From the IMG/VR virus record IMGVR_UViG_2597490253_000006: DNA of 5,464 nucleotides; one strand, written 5' to 3'. Under the pieces are notes generated by a model. The model ran no database searches and was not told the origin of the DNA. It worked only from the letters and a program-made list of their open reading frames with translations. The stretch comes from a virus. Its lineage: Duplodnaviria; Heunggongvirae; Uroviricota; Caudoviricetes. This document shows, piece by piece, positions 1 through 5,464 of this stretch. The translations under genes and the position numbers were made by a program. The stretch's first letter is position 1; each line of letters starts with the position of its first letter.

Positions 1-1344
1 ACTGAACAGCTCGCCATAGGTCGCCAGTGCAATAGTGGCCTGTTTATCTCCGGTGGTGACGTATTTATATTCCGCCCCTTCACGCACCTTACGCAGAGCA
101 CTGAAGCCCCCCATACCCACACGATGGGCAATTTTAAAATCAGACAACTGACCTTTCCGCGTCCACTGTTCATAGGTTTCAGGGGCATCTTCCCAGCCCT
201 GCAGAATGGCTTTGTTCGCAACATCCAGCAGAATATTACCGAAGTCAGACGTACTGTGTGTGAACGCCGCACCGACCATCTGCATCGGGTTATAACTGGA
301 AACACCAATACCCCGTTCAGTCAGTGACATACGGGCATATTCACGCAGAGTCATCCCGTTGTAGACATTATCACGTTCGGTTTTTTCAAATCCGGCACGC
401 GCCATCAGCGCCTGGCGGATCCCGTCCCCCACAAAATTACCGTTACCGGCATAAATATGAGCCGGGGTATTTTTATTGGATGGCGTGGACTCGCGCCCCA
501 TCTCGTTCAACAGCTTTTCGCGGGCCTGCTCCAGCGAACATTCAGGATCGGCAAGGCACTGAGCCTGCAGCGTCTGATAACGCCCGCCAAACATGGCAAA
601 CAGATCATTAATACCGTTTACACGCGCTTTTTGCTCTGCCAGTACCTGCGCACGGATACTGTTTTCATCCAGCACGGGTGCTGCTGCCTGCACTGGCGTC
701 CGGGAGGCTGCAGGTTCATTATCCTGTACGCGTGGAGCACTGTTACGTGGCGGAGTAATCATGTTTCGAATGGATTCCGGCATCTTTTTAAATTCCTCTG
801 TACGTTTTGACTGAATACATGCCATTGCCTTAACGGCTGGCGTCACCTGATCAGCAAATCCCTGTGCCAGACATTCGGCACCGGACATCCAGGTCTCATC
901 CGCCAGCATGGCAGCAATTTCATCGGTGGTTTTCCCGGTTTTCTGTGCATAAGCGGGTAACAGAACCGCCTCAACTTTATCGAGCAGGTCGGCATAGGTG
1001 CGCATGTCCTCCGCATCACCGCCCGTAAAGCCAAATGGTTTATGAATCATCATGAAGGTGTTTTCCGGCATAATGACCGGGTTTCCCACCATCGCAATGA
1101 CCGACGCCATTGACGCCGCCACACCGTCGACATAAACGGTAATGGACGCACCATGTGTTTTCAGTGCATTAAAAATGGCGATGCCTTCAAAGACATCGCC
1201 ACCCGGTGAATTGATATGGAGATTAATGTGGGTGATATCGCCCAGTGCATTCAGATCACTGATAAACTGCTTCGCCGTAACACCCCAGAAACCAATCTCG
1301 TCATAAATATAAATATCCGCATCACTCTGGTGACCAGCCTGCAT
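1..1344 (-). CDS. Prohead (head maturation) protease, ClpP/S14-like N-terminal domain with a long C-terminal extension (scaffold- or capsid-like); 3' end truncated by the window edge. 448 codons are open to position 1.
   Basis: Hand translation of the minus strand from ATG at 1344..1342 gives MQAGHQSDADIYIYDEIGFWGVTAKQFISDLNALGDITHINLHINSPGGDVFEGIAIFNALKTHGASITVYVDGVAASMASVIAMVGNPVIMPENTFMMIHKPFGF... with no stop through position 1. The GVAASMAS motif matches the ClpP catalytic-serine motif (GQAASMG type) and MMIHKP matches the ClpP catalytic-histidine motif (MIHQP type). It lies immediately downstream of the portal gene, as gene C does in lambda. It is absent from the ORF track only because it has no stop inside the window. 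Confidence 0.8.
   Translation of the reverse strand, partial: MQAGHQSDADIYIYDEIGFWGVTAKQFISDLNALGDITHINLHINSPGGDVFEGIAIFNALKTHGASITVYVDGVAASMASVIAMVGNPVIMPENTFMMIHKPFGFTGGDAEDMRTYADLLDKVEAVLLPAYAQKTGKTTDEIAAMLADETWMSGAECLAQGFADQVTPAVKAMACIQSKRTEEFKKMPESIRNMITPPRNSAPRVQDNEPAASRTPVQAAAPVLDENSIRAQVLAEQKARVNGINDLFAMFGGRYQTLQAQCLADPECSLEQAREKLLNEMGRESTPSNKNTPAHIYAGNGNFVGDGIRQALMARAGFEKTERDNVYNGMTLREYARMSLTERGIGVSSYNPMQMVGAAFTHSTSDFGNILLDVANKAILQGWEDAPETYEQWTRKGQLSDFKIAHRVGMGGFSALRKVREGAEYKYVTTGDKQATIALATYGELFS
1042..1113 (-). other. Catalytic Ser and His codons of the ClpP-like protease domain.
   Basis: Codon 1113..1111 is TCA (Ser78, within GVAASMAS) and codon 1044..1042 is CAT (His101, within MMIHKP), matching the ClpP Ser/His motif context. 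Confidence 0.7.
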
Positions 1345-1357
1345 CCTGAACCAGGAA

Positions 1358-2899
1358 TTATTCTTCGGACTGGTTGTTGGTGTGCTGCGGCTCCTGTCGT
1401 TTCGTTGCGGCACTGCTGCCTCCTTTATCACTGGCCGGATCGGTATCAAATACCAGATCCAGCTTGCGGTTTTCATCAATTTCGGCCTTGCGCCGACGTT
1501 TGACATCATCCGGATTACGACCACCAGCACGTACCCAGTCTGATTCTGTCGCCGCTCCACCACGAATCTGGATTTTCCAGGCCTCAGCCTCCTTAACAGG
1601 GTCAATCCACGGCATCACCGGTCCGGAATACACCGCGGTATACAGTGAAGAACGGTCAAGATCGCGGGGTAGCCTGATAACACCGGATGCCACAGCCTGT
1701 TTCAGCCAGGCACGGTACATCGGGCGGGTGACGGCACCAATAAACCAGTCCTGCAGGATCAGGTAGCCATCAGTGGATTCAACCAGCTCCTGACGCTGGG
1801 CGCTGTAAGTGCCGTTATAGTTGCGCGCTGTACTGGAAAAACTCAGACGACTGCCAGCCGCCACGGCACGCAACTGACCATTACGAAAAGTTTCAAGGTT
1901 AGGATTGGGACGATCCGACTTCACCATTCCGATTTCTTCGCCGGGTTTCAGATCGTCGTAAATAATGCCTGGCTGAATGGTAAGCTCGCGTTCATTCTCC
2001 TTGCTGTCATTACCATCCGTTTCATAGCTCTGTCCGTCGCCTTTCCGGATGTACATCCCCAGAGCAGCGGCGATCCTTGCTGCAGTCAGCTCAGAATCTT
2101 CATACTCTTTCAGGGCGCTGAGGCGGATCAGCACACCGGACAATAAAGACGTCCCGCGCATCTGGTGCAGACGGCGAACAAATTTAAGATGCAGCATTCG
2201 CTCTGCATCCACTTCTTTGGTTTCCATCTGCCGTCCGGATACAGGACGACTTTTATACACCAGATATTTTTCGGGACGCCCCCAGTCATCAACAAACACG
2301 CCCTGATTCAGCCTGTTGCTCTCATCACTGGTCATGGGAATAAAGTCCGGCTCGAGCGCCTCCAGCCAGAAATGAACACCGGCAGAAGGCGTCAGGCTGT
2401 TTATGCGCCCGGAAACCATCTGGGCAAACACCTCACCATCGCGCAGCCAGGTACGCAGCATCAGACGTTCCAGCATCGGACGGGTAAACTGCCCGGTGAC
2501 TTCCGGACTGACAGACCATTCACTCCATCGGGTACGTATCTCCGCTGCCAGGTCACGGGCAATGGCACCATTGCGTAATACCGGATGTGGCTCGACAATA
2601 ATCCCGTTTTTCCCCACCACCCGTTCTTCCAGCTTGTCAAATACACCAATGACCAGATCGTGGTTGTTATCAAGGTAACGGGCCTGCTCACGTAACGACA
2701 CGGCCCCGTACTGGCTNNNNNNNNNNAACGACACGGCCCCGTACTGGCTTAACTGGTCGGCAGTTCGGTTCTCCCGTCGGGCTTTGTGTGTCCGCGTCGT
2801 TTTTACGGCCTCATAAGCTTGGATCACCGCTCGGGAACGCAGCCTTGCCGCTTTCCATCCTGGTGAAAAAACGCCAATCACATCATCAAGAATTGCCAT
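1358..2899 (-). CDS. Phage portal protein, lambda gpB-like; contains a 10-N gap plus a 23-bp duplication in frame.
   Basis: Long minus-strand ORF (the track's 1358..2971). I place the start at ATG 2899..2897 (MAILDDVIGVF...) because it is preceded by GAGG with a 5-nt spacer and overlaps the upstream stop as TGATG. Size is about 500 aa and the position directly after the gpW-like gene matches lambda order (A-W-B-C). A C-terminal segment (LSFSSTARNYNGTYSAQRQ...) resembles the lambda gpB region as I recall it (from memory, not aligned). Confidence 0.8.
   Translation of the reverse strand: MAILDDVIGVFSPGWKAARLRSRAVIQAYEAVKTTRTHKARRENRTADQLSQYGAVSXXXXSQYGAVSLREQARYLDNNHDLVIGVFDKLEERVVGKNGIIVEPHPVLRNGAIARDLAAEIRTRWSEWSVSPEVTGQFTRPMLERLMLRTWLRDGEVFAQMVSGRINSLTPSAGVHFWLEALEPDFIPMTSDESNRLNQGVFVDDWGRPEKYLVYKSRPVSGRQMETKEVDAERMLHLKFVRRLHQMRGTSLLSGVLIRLSALKEYEDSELTAARIAAALGMYIRKGDGQSYETDGNDSKENERELTIQPGIIYDDLKPGEEIGMVKSDRPNPNLETFRNGQLRAVAAGSRLSFSSTARNYNGTYSAQRQELVESTDGYLILQDWFIGAVTRPMYRAWLKQAVASGVIRLPRDLDRSSLYTAVYSGPVMPWIDPVKEAEAWKIQIRGGAATESDWVRAGGRNPDDVKRRRKAEIDENRKLDLVFDTDPASDKGGSSAATKRQEPQHTNNQSEE
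2694..2749. repeat. Exact 23-bp direct duplication (aacgacacggccccgtactggct) on both sides of the N gap; most likely a scaffolding artefact.
   Basis: Copy 1 at 2694..2716 and copy 2 at 2727..2749 are identical. Gap plus one copy is 33 nt, so the portal frame is preserved and the translation shows SQYGAVS-XXXX-SQYGAVS. Confidence 0.9.
2717..2726. other. Assembly gap (run of 10 N) inside the portal CDS.
   Basis: Literal n characters at 2717..2726. Confidence 0.99.
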
Positions 2900-3111
2900 C
2901 AGAACCTCGCCAGCCGGTACCCGGGATGCCCCCGTCGTCGTGTAATCAGAGCCGCAAGGCGGCGCTCCCACTCCTGCCGCCCCTGCCGGATCTCAGATAA
3001 GTTTTCCATGGTCATCTGCTGACCATTAAAAGTGACGGATTTTCCGTCCAGCACTGCCATTTCAGCTTCCGTATAACGCTGAATCATGGCTTCAATATCA
3101 TTCTGATTCAT
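2899..3111 (-). CDS. Head-tail joining / head completion protein, lambda gpW-like (about 70 aa).
   Basis: Small minus-strand ORF between large terminase and portal. Its C-terminus ...ITRRRGHPGYRLARF resembles the lambda gpW C-terminus (...RRRGPAGFYV, recalled from memory). The track starts it at 3117, but the GGAGG at 3122..3118 abuts that ATG with no spacer, while the in-frame ATG at 3111..3109 sits 6 nt downstream of it and forms an ATGA overlap with the terL stop. Confidence 0.65.
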   Translation of the reverse strand: MNQNDIEAMIQRYTEAEMAVLDGKSVTFNGQQMTMENLSEIRQGRQEWERRLAALITRRRGHPGYRLARF

Positions 3112-5210
3112 AACCATCCTCCGGAAGTCAGCCAGGGGTTAACATCGTCAGTTACTGTTTTCTTCCGTTTTTGTTTTTTAACAGGCGTGGATACCGGTTC
3201 CGGTGTGGGTGACGGTTCGGTACTGTCCGGGACACACTCCAGCCAGGTTTCCCGGCTCGCCCACTCCGGTGCATCCGGCCAGCGGATCTTTTCGTATCCA
3301 TGCAGAATGACCAGAGCCTCGGCATACACCATCAGGTCAAAAGCTTCGTTGGCACCGCGACCCGGCTTACTCCATTTCCCGTCACTGCTCCGCTCTTCAT
3401 ACGTCAGTTCGTCGTAAAACCAGCTCCCCAGCCAGTCAGGGAAATGCACATAGCCGGGACCTGGCGAGTCACGCCATAACGCGTTATTCACCCGGTCTTT
3501 CAGGGCATCCGTCTGAAGAAGCCAGAGCGGTACATCACCTGCGGCCTGCGCCCGTCGGCCCGTTCGTCCGGTGTTATCAGGGAATGTACGGGTGATCAGT
3601 TTTGCGCGCCGGATGCTGTCGCCCTTAAACAGGTAAATACGTTTACCAAGGCCATCACGACGGCAACGACGCCAGAATTTATAGGCATTATCAGTGACCC
3701 CGTCTTCACCGCCGGAGTCCACCGCCATTGCCATCAGTCGCATTTGTTGAGAAGGATCGGAGGCCAGCGGCCAGCTTTTATGAAAAACATCCGTCAGCAG
3801 GACATCCCAGTCTTCCGGATAGCTGGCCGGATCAATTCGCTGGCTCTCCCCGTCGCTGTCACCGCGCAATGACTGCGTGATGTTGTAACGATCAATAATC
3901 CAGCGTTCGCCACGGCTGCCATAGCCCGTTACCTGAACCACAAAACGGCGATGAAGTCCCGCCTGCACATCCACTGTCGCCACAAGGAAATTAACGCCAT
4001 CCGGAACACTGCGGGAAGGAACTGGCTCTGCCCGCTGCTCAAGCAATTCACTTTTTCGTTGCTCCATGCTGGCGCGGGGAAGATAAGGTAATCCCCAGTC
4101 GGTATTGATAACCGTCTTGAGTGTCTCTTCACTTCCGGTTGTCTCGTATTCCTGTTCTGCAGTAAGCAGTTTGTAAACGAGTTGCGAGAGTGTCTGATAA
4201 GCAGCTGCCGGCCCCTCCATCCAGAATGACGCAATACGTGAACGCCGGGGATCACCATAACGACTGCCATCTGCATTGATGGATTCACCATCCCGTAACC
4301 AGACCCCACGTCCGTTCAGCTCGCGTTTTTGTTCAGGCAAAATCCGTCCTGAACAGGAAGGACACTGAATATAAGCCGCCTCACTTGCCAGCACAGGATC
4401 GGCAATATCACGGAAACCAGCAACCACATCGCCGCAGGGCTGAAAATACTCACCACAGTGTGGACAGGGCCAGTACCAGCGACGGCGATCGCCACGGTTA
4501 TAGAGCGACAGGATCCCCGTGGTTGGTGGAGCCTCATGCGGTGAAGTCCGTCGCCATTTCACATCCTTCACATCCCTGCCGGGGGAACTCTCCACCAGCG
4601 TCATACCACTGGACATAAATGTGGTGGTACGTTTTGAGGCAAGAGAGAAGGCATCCCCCTCACCATCAATATCTTCCGGAAAACGGTCATAATCCGTCAG
4701 CGCCACGCATTTATAATCTGATGAAGACATGATATTGACTGACGGCCAGCCGATTTTCAGGTAGTTGCCAGCAAGGAATGTTCTGTCATAAACGTTGTTG
4801 TCATTTTTGTTCGGACTCAGGCGACTGACCACTTCCGGGCTGACGCGAAACGTTCTGGCGAGTCGTTTTTTGGAGTGTTCGCGGGCTTTTTCCTCCGTCA
4901 TCTGAATGATCAGCATATCAGCAGGATCGCAAATCACGTTGTAAATCACCCAGCCGTCAATCAGGCCGATAGTCTTGCCGGTTCGTGCCGGGCCAACAAA
5001 TATCACTGCGTCGTATTCACGCGAGGCCAGGCAGTTCATAGGCTCAATAACATACGGTGCCACCAGCGGATCCCACGGGACTGAGTTCCCTGCCCCCATG
5101 GGCACCCGCATATACTGAGCAACGGCATCAGCAACCCGCATTCGTCTCGGTGCGCGAAGGATATAACCTGAATCGGTTCGTGCTGCCTTTGCGGTTTCCT
5201 GATTCAGCAT
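3108..5210 (-). CDS. terL: Terminase large subunit, lambda GpA family (700 aa).
   Basis: 700-aa minus-strand ORF. Walker A motif GPARTGKT at aa 73-80 (nt 4971..4994, verified by reverse-complementing). Cys-pairs WPCPHCGEYF and IQCPSCSG correspond to the ACPHCGEE region of lambda gpA. The segment NFLVATVDVQAGLHRRFVVQVTGYG resembles the lambda gpA segment AYLTAGIDSQLDRYEMRVWGWG (recalled from memory). Start ATG 5210..5208 is preceded by AGGAGGAG. Confidence 0.9.
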   Translation of the reverse strand: MLNQETAKAARTDSGYILRAPRRMRVADAVAQYMRVPMGAGNSVPWDPLVAPYVIEPMNCLASREYDAVIFVGPARTGKTIGLIDGWVIYNVICDPADMLIIQMTEEKAREHSKKRLARTFRVSPEVVSRLSPNKNDNNVYDRTFLAGNYLKIGWPSVNIMSSSDYKCVALTDYDRFPEDIDGEGDAFSLASKRTTTFMSSGMTLVESSPGRDVKDVKWRRTSPHEAPPTTGILSLYNRGDRRRWYWPCPHCGEYFQPCGDVVAGFRDIADPVLASEAAYIQCPSCSGRILPEQKRELNGRGVWLRDGESINADGSRYGDPRRSRIASFWMEGPAAAYQTLSQLVYKLLTAEQEYETTGSEETLKTVINTDWGLPYLPRASMEQRKSELLEQRAEPVPSRSVPDGVNFLVATVDVQAGLHRRFVVQVTGYGSRGERWIIDRYNITQSLRGDSDGESQRIDPASYPEDWDVLLTDVFHKSWPLASDPSQQMRLMAMAVDSGGEDGVTDNAYKFWRRCRRDGLGKRIYLFKGDSIRRAKLITRTFPDNTGRTGRRAQAAGDVPLWLLQTDALKDRVNNALWRDSPGPGYVHFPDWLGSWFYDELTYEERSSDGKWSKPGRGANEAFDLMVYAEALVILHGYEKIRWPDAPEWASRETWLECVPDSTEPSPTPEPVSTPVKKQKRKKTVTDDVNPWLTSGGWL
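3118..3122 (-). promoter_or_regulatory. Shine-Dalgarno sequence (GGAGG) for the gpW-like gene, inside the terL 3' end.
   Basis: Minus-strand sequence reads CCGGAGGATGGTTATGA; GGAGG is 6 nt upstream of the ATG at 3111. Confidence 0.5.
4353..4466 (-). other. Cys4 cluster (CPHC ... CPSC) in the large terminase, a putative metal-binding motif.
   Basis: Codons verified by reverse-complementing: 4455..4466 gives C-P-H-C and 4353..4364 gives C-P-S-C, at aa 249-252 and 283-286. Confidence 0.6.
4971..4994 (-). other. Walker A (P-loop) ATPase motif GPARTGKT of the large terminase.
   Basis: Reverse complement of 4971..4994 is GGCCCGGCACGAACCGGCAAGACT, which translates to G P A R T G K T. Confidence 0.85.
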
Positions 5211-5464
5211 TACTCCTCCTGCTGTAATTCCTCCTCATCATCCGCACCTGCTTCGGTCACCCGCAGGGCTATCTGATCGCGCAGATCATCAATAATGGAC
5301 TGAACACGGCTCACAGCGGCAGGCTGCAGGCCGCAGTCACGTTCCAGAATATCCGGTAATGTCTCCAGCACCTGCACGACCGCTTTTGCCCAGATGGCAA
5401 ACTCCCGTCTGACATCACTGGCCGGAATGAGTTGTGCCGTTTCCTGTTCGAACTTAAGACGCTC
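5210..5464 (-). CDS. terS: Putative terminase small subunit, C-terminal part only (5' end lies beyond the right edge).
   Basis: Hand translation of the minus strand from 5464 is open for 84 codons (ERLKFEQETAQLIPASDVRREFAIWAKAVVQVLETLPDILERDCGLQPAAVSRVQSIIDDLRDQIALRVTEAGADDEEELQQEE) and ends in TAA at 5212..5210, overlapping the terL ATG as TAATG. The call rests on position immediately upstream of terL, as in lambda Nu1-A; I saw no diagnostic motif in the fragment. Confidence 0.5.
   Translation of the reverse strand, partial: ERLKFEQETAQLIPASDVRREFAIWAKAVVQVLETLPDILERDCGLQPAAVSRVQSIIDDLRDQIALRVTEAGADDEEELQQEE
5213..5220 (-). promoter_or_regulatory. Shine-Dalgarno sequence (AGGAGGAG) for terL, embedded in the 3' end of the upstream gene.
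   Basis: Minus-strand sequence reads AGGAGGAGTAATG, with AGGAGG 4 nt upstream of the terL ATG. Confidence 0.6.

Follow-up and report, generated by a model that had tools for sequence, protein, structure and literature searches.

A candidate nested translation start in the ClpP-like protease/major capsid protein fusion gene of lambda-like Escherichia coli prophages

A stretch of 5,464 nucleotides of virus DNA (Caudoviricetes; IMG/VR record IMGVR_UViG_2597490253_000006), hereafter the window, carries at its left end a long minus-strand open reading frame (ORF) whose first part resembles the protease ClpP. The question raised by this locus is whether the frame belongs to a protease-scaffold gene of the lambda C/Nu3 type or to a protease fused to a capsid-like domain, two arrangements between which the original prediction, made from the letters of the window, did not choose. 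The feature is the 5' two-thirds of a head-assembly gene from a lambda-like siphophage prophage of Escherichia coli. Its product joins a protease to a capsid protein through a scaffold-like segment, and it is an already known, curated and very common prophage gene. The fusion itself is known because the NCBI pipeline names the gene and the architecture of gp5 of Pseudomonas phage MD8 has been published. What appears to be new is a candidate translation start nested within the gene; no report of it was found in the searchable literature, which does not prove it unreported. Taken as a whole, the gene is explained with good confidence as one frame for protease, linker, helical segment and HK97-fold capsid domain, probably read from two starts.

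Translation of the window gives an open frame of 448 codons on the minus strand, from position 1344 to position 1, which contains the motifs GVAASMAS and MMIHKP, a Pro/Ala-rich stretch and the C-terminal sequence quoted in the original prediction. Apart from those of the two Pfam matches to this 448-codon fragment, residue numbers are counted from a GTG at window position 1413 (see below). Counted in this way the protease-scaffold-major capsid fusion gene occupies positions 1..1413 (minus strand) with codons 1-471 of 675, and its last 204 codons lie past the left edge of the window. The 448-residue fragment is matched by Pfam CLP_protease at residues 23-168 (E=3.6e-36) and by the start of the Phage_capsid_4 profile at residues 354-447 (E=9e-12). 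Against NCBIfam NF045540 (scaf_prot_MCP1, 'ClpP-like prohead protease/major capsid protein fusion protein') it scores 652.6 bits, the curated cut-off being 475, and covers profile positions 2-448 of 652. The window fragment also matches PHROG 133 (E=1e-249), and the resemblance is far beyond chance. In a full-length copy the Phage_capsid_4 match extends over essentially the whole profile (E=2e-54), and a match to the Mu-like gpT was found as well (E=4e-8). The gene thus shows the features of NF045540: a ClpP-related N-terminal protease domain with catalytic Ser and His, an HK97-fold major capsid domain at the C-terminus, read in the same frame, and a position in the head module after the portal gene, as the sole capsid gene of the phage. 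The protein is not a member of NF045541 (scaf_prot_MCP2), for which it scores 162.9 bits against a curated cut-off of 525. It also fails the equivalog of the cellular enzyme, TIGR00493 (ATP-dependent Clp protease proteolytic subunit), with 59.6 bits against a cut-off of 308.6.

Deposited names of the same gene vary and include 'putative protease', 'head-tail preconnector protein Nu3', 'Major Capsid Protein', 'head maturation protease', 'protease/scaffold protein' and two ClpP names. As labels for proteins of the NF045540 type, 'Clp protease ClpP' and 'ATP-dependent Clp protease proteolytic subunit' are misnomers, judged by family scores. PHROG 3348, a 386-position profile of 'unknown function', matches protease, linker and first helix (E=1e-136); it may consist of truncated gene calls, or of relatives with a separate protease-scaffold gene.

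Many complete E. coli genomes carry prophages with 100% identity to a run of 1400 bases, and a match is present in 2121 of the 5426 complete E. coli genomes (~39%). Among isolated phages, phi458, Tritos, cdtI, Ayreon and mEp460 match the run at 98-99% identity. When the frame is extended in the 100%-identical prophages, a check proposed with the original prediction, it continues through the capsid domain. The complete gene in one of these (NZ_CP016546) has 675 codons, and the same DNA is annotated there as WP_001596842.1, ClpP-like prohead protease/major capsid protein fusion protein (L001 8988-11015). The gene order in NZ_CP016546 is terminase, a small head-tail joining gene, portal, fusion gene, a 107-residue Phage_cement_2 gene, a Gifsy-2-type connector and tail genes. 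Phage cdtI shares the order portal, fusion gene, Phage_cement_2, connector and tail, and so do phages 1720a-02 and Stx2_14040, which are 81% identical.

This gene order bears on a protease-scaffold-only product like that of lambda C/Nu3, the capsid protein coming from a separate downstream gene. Several phage records do carry the names 'protease/scaffold protein' or 'head-tail preconnector protein Nu3', which would fit such a product. However, the identical full-length copy has the complete Phage_capsid_4 domain (E=2e-54), and the next gene is that of the 107-residue cement protein, after which come connector and tail genes. The downstream genes of the identical prophage are cement/decoration, connector and tail genes, with no separate scaffold or capsid gene among them, and no second capsid or scaffold gene is annotated in the complete 47-kb genome of cdtI. 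A protease-scaffold gene alone is refuted by the capsid domain in frame and the absence of another capsid gene, and is left with almost no probability. As to the choice that had been left between scaffold and capsid, the capsid fusion stands, with a helical scaffold-like segment between its two parts; the pure protease-scaffold gene does not. No early stop with separate scaffold and capsid genes was found, and the ClpP match is significant.

A scan of viral contigs gave almost only loci of 99-100% identity, unfit for codon-level tests, and a scan of genome contigs was used instead. With one genome per species it returned 80 loci of 37-99% identity, of which 76 were analysed. These span Enterobacterales, Pasteurellaceae, Pseudomonas, Shewanella, Burkholderiales and Rhizobiales. 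Excluded were L110, L141 and L146, which are cut by a contig end, and L145, which has an in-frame stop. In L145 (Microbulbifer epialgicus, ~2501-2548) this stop lies 16 codons into the tblastn match, probably in the poorly conserved N-terminal region and upstream of where the gene really starts; the locus was left out of the statistics. A single frame leads from the protease to the capsid domain in 76/76 analysed loci, and more than 130 cluster representatives can be aligned over their full length. An artefactual fusion, in which a sequencing or assembly error joined a protease-scaffold gene to a capsid gene, might be suspected since the window does hold one assembly artefact, a run of N at 2717-2726. 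That run is located in the portal gene and not in the fusion gene, and the same unbroken frame is present in more than 2000 complete E. coli genomes, in isolated phages and in the 76 loci of other species at 37-74% identity. The frame in complete genomes and in these 76 loci refutes an artefact, which keeps a negligible share of the probability. On these comparisons the fusion is real and old. The fusion arrangement put forward in the original prediction is therefore confirmed, but it is not unusual, NF045540 being a curated and named family.

The structure of the chain was modelled with AlphaFold2 from 90 diverse full-length cluster representatives of 35-60% identity (mean predicted local distance difference test score, pLDDT, 88.5). 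A model from 17 close homologues (75-96% identity) reached a pLDDT of 37 and was not usable. Residues 22-195 (829..1350, minus strand) form a ClpP-fold serine protease domain, an alpha/beta domain of high model confidence. Its catalytic codons are Ser101 (1113-1111), His124 (1044-1042) and Glu173 (897-895), all on the minus strand. Ser101 and His124 are invariant in 90/90 diverse homologues, in agreement with the ClpP-like prohead protease with intact Ser and His motifs that had been proposed (CLP_protease, E=3.6e-36), and residue 173 is Glu or Asp in 85/90. The long C-terminal extension, originally seen as at least 270 further residues in the window, is confirmed by the 675 codons of the identical prophages. 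It begins with a hypervariable, disordered Pro/Ala-rich linker, residues 217-249 (667..765, minus strand; pLDDT <50 at 225-246), which has the highest entropy and the most insertions and deletions in the 90-sequence alignment. Three helices follow (250-273, 280-288 and 294-307; pLDDT ~89-97) and make up a scaffold-like, or delta-domain-like, segment of residues 250-307 (493..666, minus strand). The proposed succession of a Pro/Ala-rich linker and probable helices is thus seen in the model, with disorder at 225-246 and three helices at 250-307. No Pfam family and no scaffold family matched this segment; only PHROG families of fusion proteins did. It is called scaffold because of where it lies, its helical nature and the absence of another scaffold gene.

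A low-confidence loop, residues 308-326 (436..492, minus strand; pLDDT ~56), is the inferred site of maturation cleavage. The folded HK97-fold major capsid domain begins at about residue 327 with high model confidence; its N-terminal part, residues 327-471 of 327-675, is encoded at 1..435 (minus strand). In the model the large domain of residues 327-675 has a spine-like helix of 29 residues (482-510). The globular-looking region that was noted to run past the window edge is this domain, Phage_capsid_4. A Foldseek search against viral models returned ClpP-like phage proteases and major capsid proteins. The recommended profile searches and structure prediction found CLP_protease, a capsid family and a folded HK97-type domain, and no scaffold family.

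The chain most likely starts at the GTG at 1413, 23 codons upstream of the ATG at 1344. The probable main translation start (1411..1426, minus strand) consists of the Shine-Dalgarno (SD) sequence AAAGGAGG (1426-1419), a 5-nt spacer and the GTG (1413-1411), and was recognized by its duplex energy. The SD duplex energy is -11.6 kcal/mol at GTG 1413 and -2.7 kcal/mol at ATG 1344; the latter, with almost no ribosome-binding site, was dropped as start. Relatives at 90% protein identity have an ATG at the exact position of GTG 1413. Codons 20 and 23 show synonymous changes among relatives while Ser-Trp-Phe-Arg is retained, which indicates that the stretch between 1413 and 1344 is coding. Distant homologues also start several residues upstream of the equivalent of the Met at 1344. 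The start at 1344 taken in the original prediction gives way to GTG 1413 in view of the SD energy, the ATG of the relatives and the synonymous changes. The start of the fusion gene overlaps the final 56 nt of the portal gene (window 1358-1413), which is read in another frame, and the overlap suggests translational coupling. Gene C of lambda likewise has a GTG with a strong SD (GAGGAGG) and a 20-nt overlap with the end of the portal gene B.

A second site with start signals lies in the linker. The candidate nested internal start (781..798, minus strand), found by SD and accessibility, is composed of GAGGAA (798-793), an A-rich spacer and the ATG at 783-781, which encodes Met211. At the level of sequence signals the gene therefore has an in-frame internal start codon with a ribosome-binding site after the protease domain, as nested genes do. 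The predicted product, residues 211-675, has a mass of 50.7 kDa. In the window the SD duplex energy of the site is -6.0 kcal/mol, and its opening energy of 3.7 kcal/mol is the second lowest among the in-frame ATGs of the gene. In one column of the otherwise hypervariable linker, 77% of the 90 diverse proteins have Met. In 67 of the 76 loci a GGAG, GAGG or AGGA precedes the best in-frame linker ATG, with its end 5-12 nt upstream; the same criterion is satisfied at 49 of the 1527 other in-frame ATGs of these genes (3.2%). The mean SD duplex energy at the linker ATG is -6.45 kcal/mol, against a null of -4.09 +/- 0.27 kcal/mol (2000 resamplings, none below -5.06). The predicted opening energy of positions -15 to +9 is 5.5 kcal/mol at the site versus 9.1 kcal/mol at other ATGs (p=1e-24), and the site is a local trough in predicted mRNA structure, 2.6 +/- 0.3 kcal/mol below the remaining linker. 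As a positive control, lambda C was scanned in the same way; among its internal ATGs, codon 239 (annotated by RefSeq as the start of nu3) and codon 309 had the lowest SD energies.

The codons themselves were compared in the 44 loci that have the window motif x-x-[F/Y]-x-x-M-P. Where the codon five before the Met encodes Glu, Gln or Lys it is always NAG (GAG 29/29, CAG 9/9, AAG 4/4), and the other 2/44 loci have Gly-Asp spelled GGA-GAC. The background of Glu codons in these ORFs is 1541 GAA versus 1158 GAG. AGGA is thus invariant across different amino acids, and the constraint is therefore one on nucleotides and not on amino acids. The window type has GAGGAA, 9 nt and ATG, with one spacer base more than most of the distant loci with a strong SD, which have AGGAnn, 8 nt and ATG. 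In these distant loci the ATG lies 20-50 codons deeper in the linker, where the surrounding peptide is unrelated, as in AAGGAGagcaacaccATG. The internal start appears to have been relocated within the linker between lineages yet retained. Two other readings were set aside. Met137 has an SD of -10.1 kcal/mol with a spacer of 2 nt, lies inside the protease fold and is Met in 32% of the 90 homologues. An E. coli lineage that seemed to lack the linker Met, the alignment having set the conserved Met opposite Val229, was an artefact; its DNA shows an SD and ATG equivalent to those at Met211.

Codon use adds weak support for the nested start. Optimal codons are used less in the protease part (0.491) than in the capsid part (0.555; n=26, p=7e-5, at equal third-position GC content, GC3). 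A similar pattern was obtained for lambda, with 0.490 for the N-terminal part of C, 0.598 for the Nu3 part, 0.594 for E and 0.493 for B.

Several points weigh against a nested start. The contrast in codon use is unclean, since the two halves of the capsid domain differ as well (p=0.0014). The SD-like core is weak in the lineage of the window (-6.0 kcal/mol) and sits inside a conserved peptide motif, R-I-E-E-F-x-x-M-P, so that part of its conservation is accounted for by selection on the protein. In 9/76 loci no clear SD core was found. By a rough volume estimate there is room in a T=7 procapsid for 415 copies of the whole N-terminal part, so that an internal start is not strictly required. Protein-level or ribosome-profiling data for the NF045540-type family were not found in the literature, and a literature search for virion proteomics or N-terminal sequencing in this phage group gave nothing usable.

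These points lead to an account in which the gene has a single product, the 73.5-kDa chain. Each capsid subunit would then bring its own protease and mature by autoproteolysis, and the SD-like motif and Met211 would be kept as a structural or cleavage motif or as a pause site. The conservation of R-I-E-E-F-x-x-M-P at the amino-acid level in the lineage of the window fits such a polyprotein, as do the nearly invariant Pro after Met211 across the family, the internal SD of just -6.0 kcal/mol compared with -11.6 kcal/mol at the main start, and the lack of experimental evidence for a second product in the literature. It is harder to reconcile with the conservation of AGGA through Glu, Gln, Lys and Gly-Asp, the synonymous GAA, CAA and AAA never being seen. 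Distant homologues without the Met in the motif have AAGGAG, 8 nt and ATG elsewhere in the hypervariable linker, and the minimum of predicted mRNA structure is centred on the ATG; moreover, a pause site needs no ATG at a fixed spacing. A single-product polyprotein is accordingly regarded as possible but rather unlikely. The favoured reading, considered probable, is that the gene is read from two starts: GTG 1413 would give the 73.5-kDa protease-bearing chain, and the ATG at 783-781 a 50.7-kDa scaffold-capsid chain free of protease. With slightly less assurance, though still on the positive side, it is proposed that the protease-free chain is made in excess over the full-length one and that initiation alone sets their proportions. 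Such a gene would merge the nesting of lambda and herpesviruses with the HK97 scheme, in which the scaffold is carried on the capsid protein.

Members of NF045540 such as E. coli WP_001596842.1, cdtI orf5 and the mEp460 protein represent the same gene, with DNA that is 100% or 98-99% identical. There is no difference at the gene level, and neither the family name nor the records consulted mention an internal start. For Pseudomonas phage MD8, gp5 was described as a single gene of 693 residues, for which protease, scaffold and major capsid protein were proposed from homology modelling (PMC8508860). It has the same domain order and is also found in a lambdoid genome, but it differs in host and in its diverged sequence, and the paper gives no expression model and mentions no nested start (PMC8508860). 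A loss of the stop codon between protease-scaffold and capsid genes was speculated for MD8 (PMC8508860). Should the gene descend from a nested protease-scaffold gene whose stop before the capsid gene was lost, a retained internal start is to be expected. The nested protease-scaffold scheme is documented for lambda C/Nu3, for UL26/UL26.5 of the herpesvirus HSV-1 and for gp17/gp17.5 of the archaeal virus HFTV1 (bioRxiv 10.64898/2026.09.13.751334). These and Mu I/Z have an N-terminal protease and a C-terminal scaffold in one frame, and the window gene resembles them in its candidate in-frame start just after the protease domain. The nested systems have a gene of its own for the capsid protein, whereas the frame of the window gene runs through the capsid domain. 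The protease families differ also, lambda C being annotated as an S49 peptidase while the window protease is of the S14/ClpP type.

Like HK97 gp4/gp5, the window gene encodes an HK97-fold shell protein, here preceded on the same chain by a predicted helical, scaffold-like segment. The delta domain of HK97 has 102 residues (PMC8508860), and from Met211 to residue 307 there are 97 residues here. In HK97 the protease is a separate gene of another family, while here it is on the same chain. HK97 is not known to have a cement protein, and its shell is cross-linked; the fusion gene here, in contrast, is followed by a Phage_cement_2 gene. Protease and capsid are also on one chain in NF045541 and in the actinobacteriophage 'major capsid and protease fusion protein', but these belong to different sequence families.

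In lambda (L166) the RefSeq nu3 start at codon 239 of gene C has an SD of -6.9 kcal/mol. The strongest internal SD is at codon 309 (CAGGAGGGCGAATG, -10.8 kcal/mol), from which a product of 131 residues is expected. In the biochemical literature gpNu3 is described as a protein of ~13 kDa, a size that the 131-residue product fits. The lambda nu3 annotation may use the wrong start, or both starts may be used.

By analogy with HK97, lambda and herpesviruses, the chains of the fusion gene would co-assemble on the portal to form a procapsid, and the protease and the helical segment would face its interior. The two starts would set the ratio of protease-bearing to protease-free chains, so that the protease would be incorporated in sub-stoichiometric amounts. 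This would extend the nesting logic of lambda C/Nu3 and UL26/UL26.5 into the capsid gene. As in the same model systems, the protease would remove all of the chain that lies N-terminal of the capsid domain; this cut would probably fall near residues 305-330, in the low-confidence loop 308-326. A shell protein of ~38-40 kDa would be left. The shell would then expand on DNA packaging, and the cement protein encoded downstream would bind and stabilise it.

The portal gene (1358..2971, minus strand) lies directly upstream, its 3' end overlapping the start of the fusion gene; it was taken from the ORF list, is annotated as phage portal protein in L001 and was compared by blastn. Within it, at window 2717-2726, are 10 N whose two flanks are the same 23-nt sequence AACGACACGGCCCCGTACTGGCT. 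Compared by blastn with the identical prophage, the flanks of the N run overlap by exactly 23 bases. The run is an artefact of scaffold joining, through which SQYGAVS appears twice in the translated protein, and the real portal gene is uninterrupted. The large terminase gene (3108-5210) and a gpW-like gene of 70-72 residues (2899-3117) complete a lambda-like packaging module. At 5210-5464 (minus strand) the right edge of the window cuts a DUF1441 gene (L001 4733-5224), of which the ORF finder lists a 55-residue piece only; it is presumed to encode the small terminase subunit. Outside the window, just after the stop of the fusion gene and between the capsid and cement genes, a GC-rich hairpin with seven T's (L001 11039-11052) looks like an intrinsic terminator.

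The gene builds the heads of one of the commonest types of E. coli prophage, including toxin-carrying phages: cdtI falls in the 98-99% clade, and Stx2a-converting phages are found at ~81% identity. Records labelled ClpP, Nu3 or protease should be read as a capsid gene. The gene itself is ordinary and already named by the annotation pipeline of NCBI; the evidence for the nested start is the part worth passing on. If the internal start is true, it explains how a head module with a single gene avoids having a protease on every shell subunit. The nesting principle of lambda, the herpesviruses and the archaeal virus would then be extended to a third arrangement, and one ATG and one AGGA would offer a simple mutable handle for the study of protease dose in capsid maturation.

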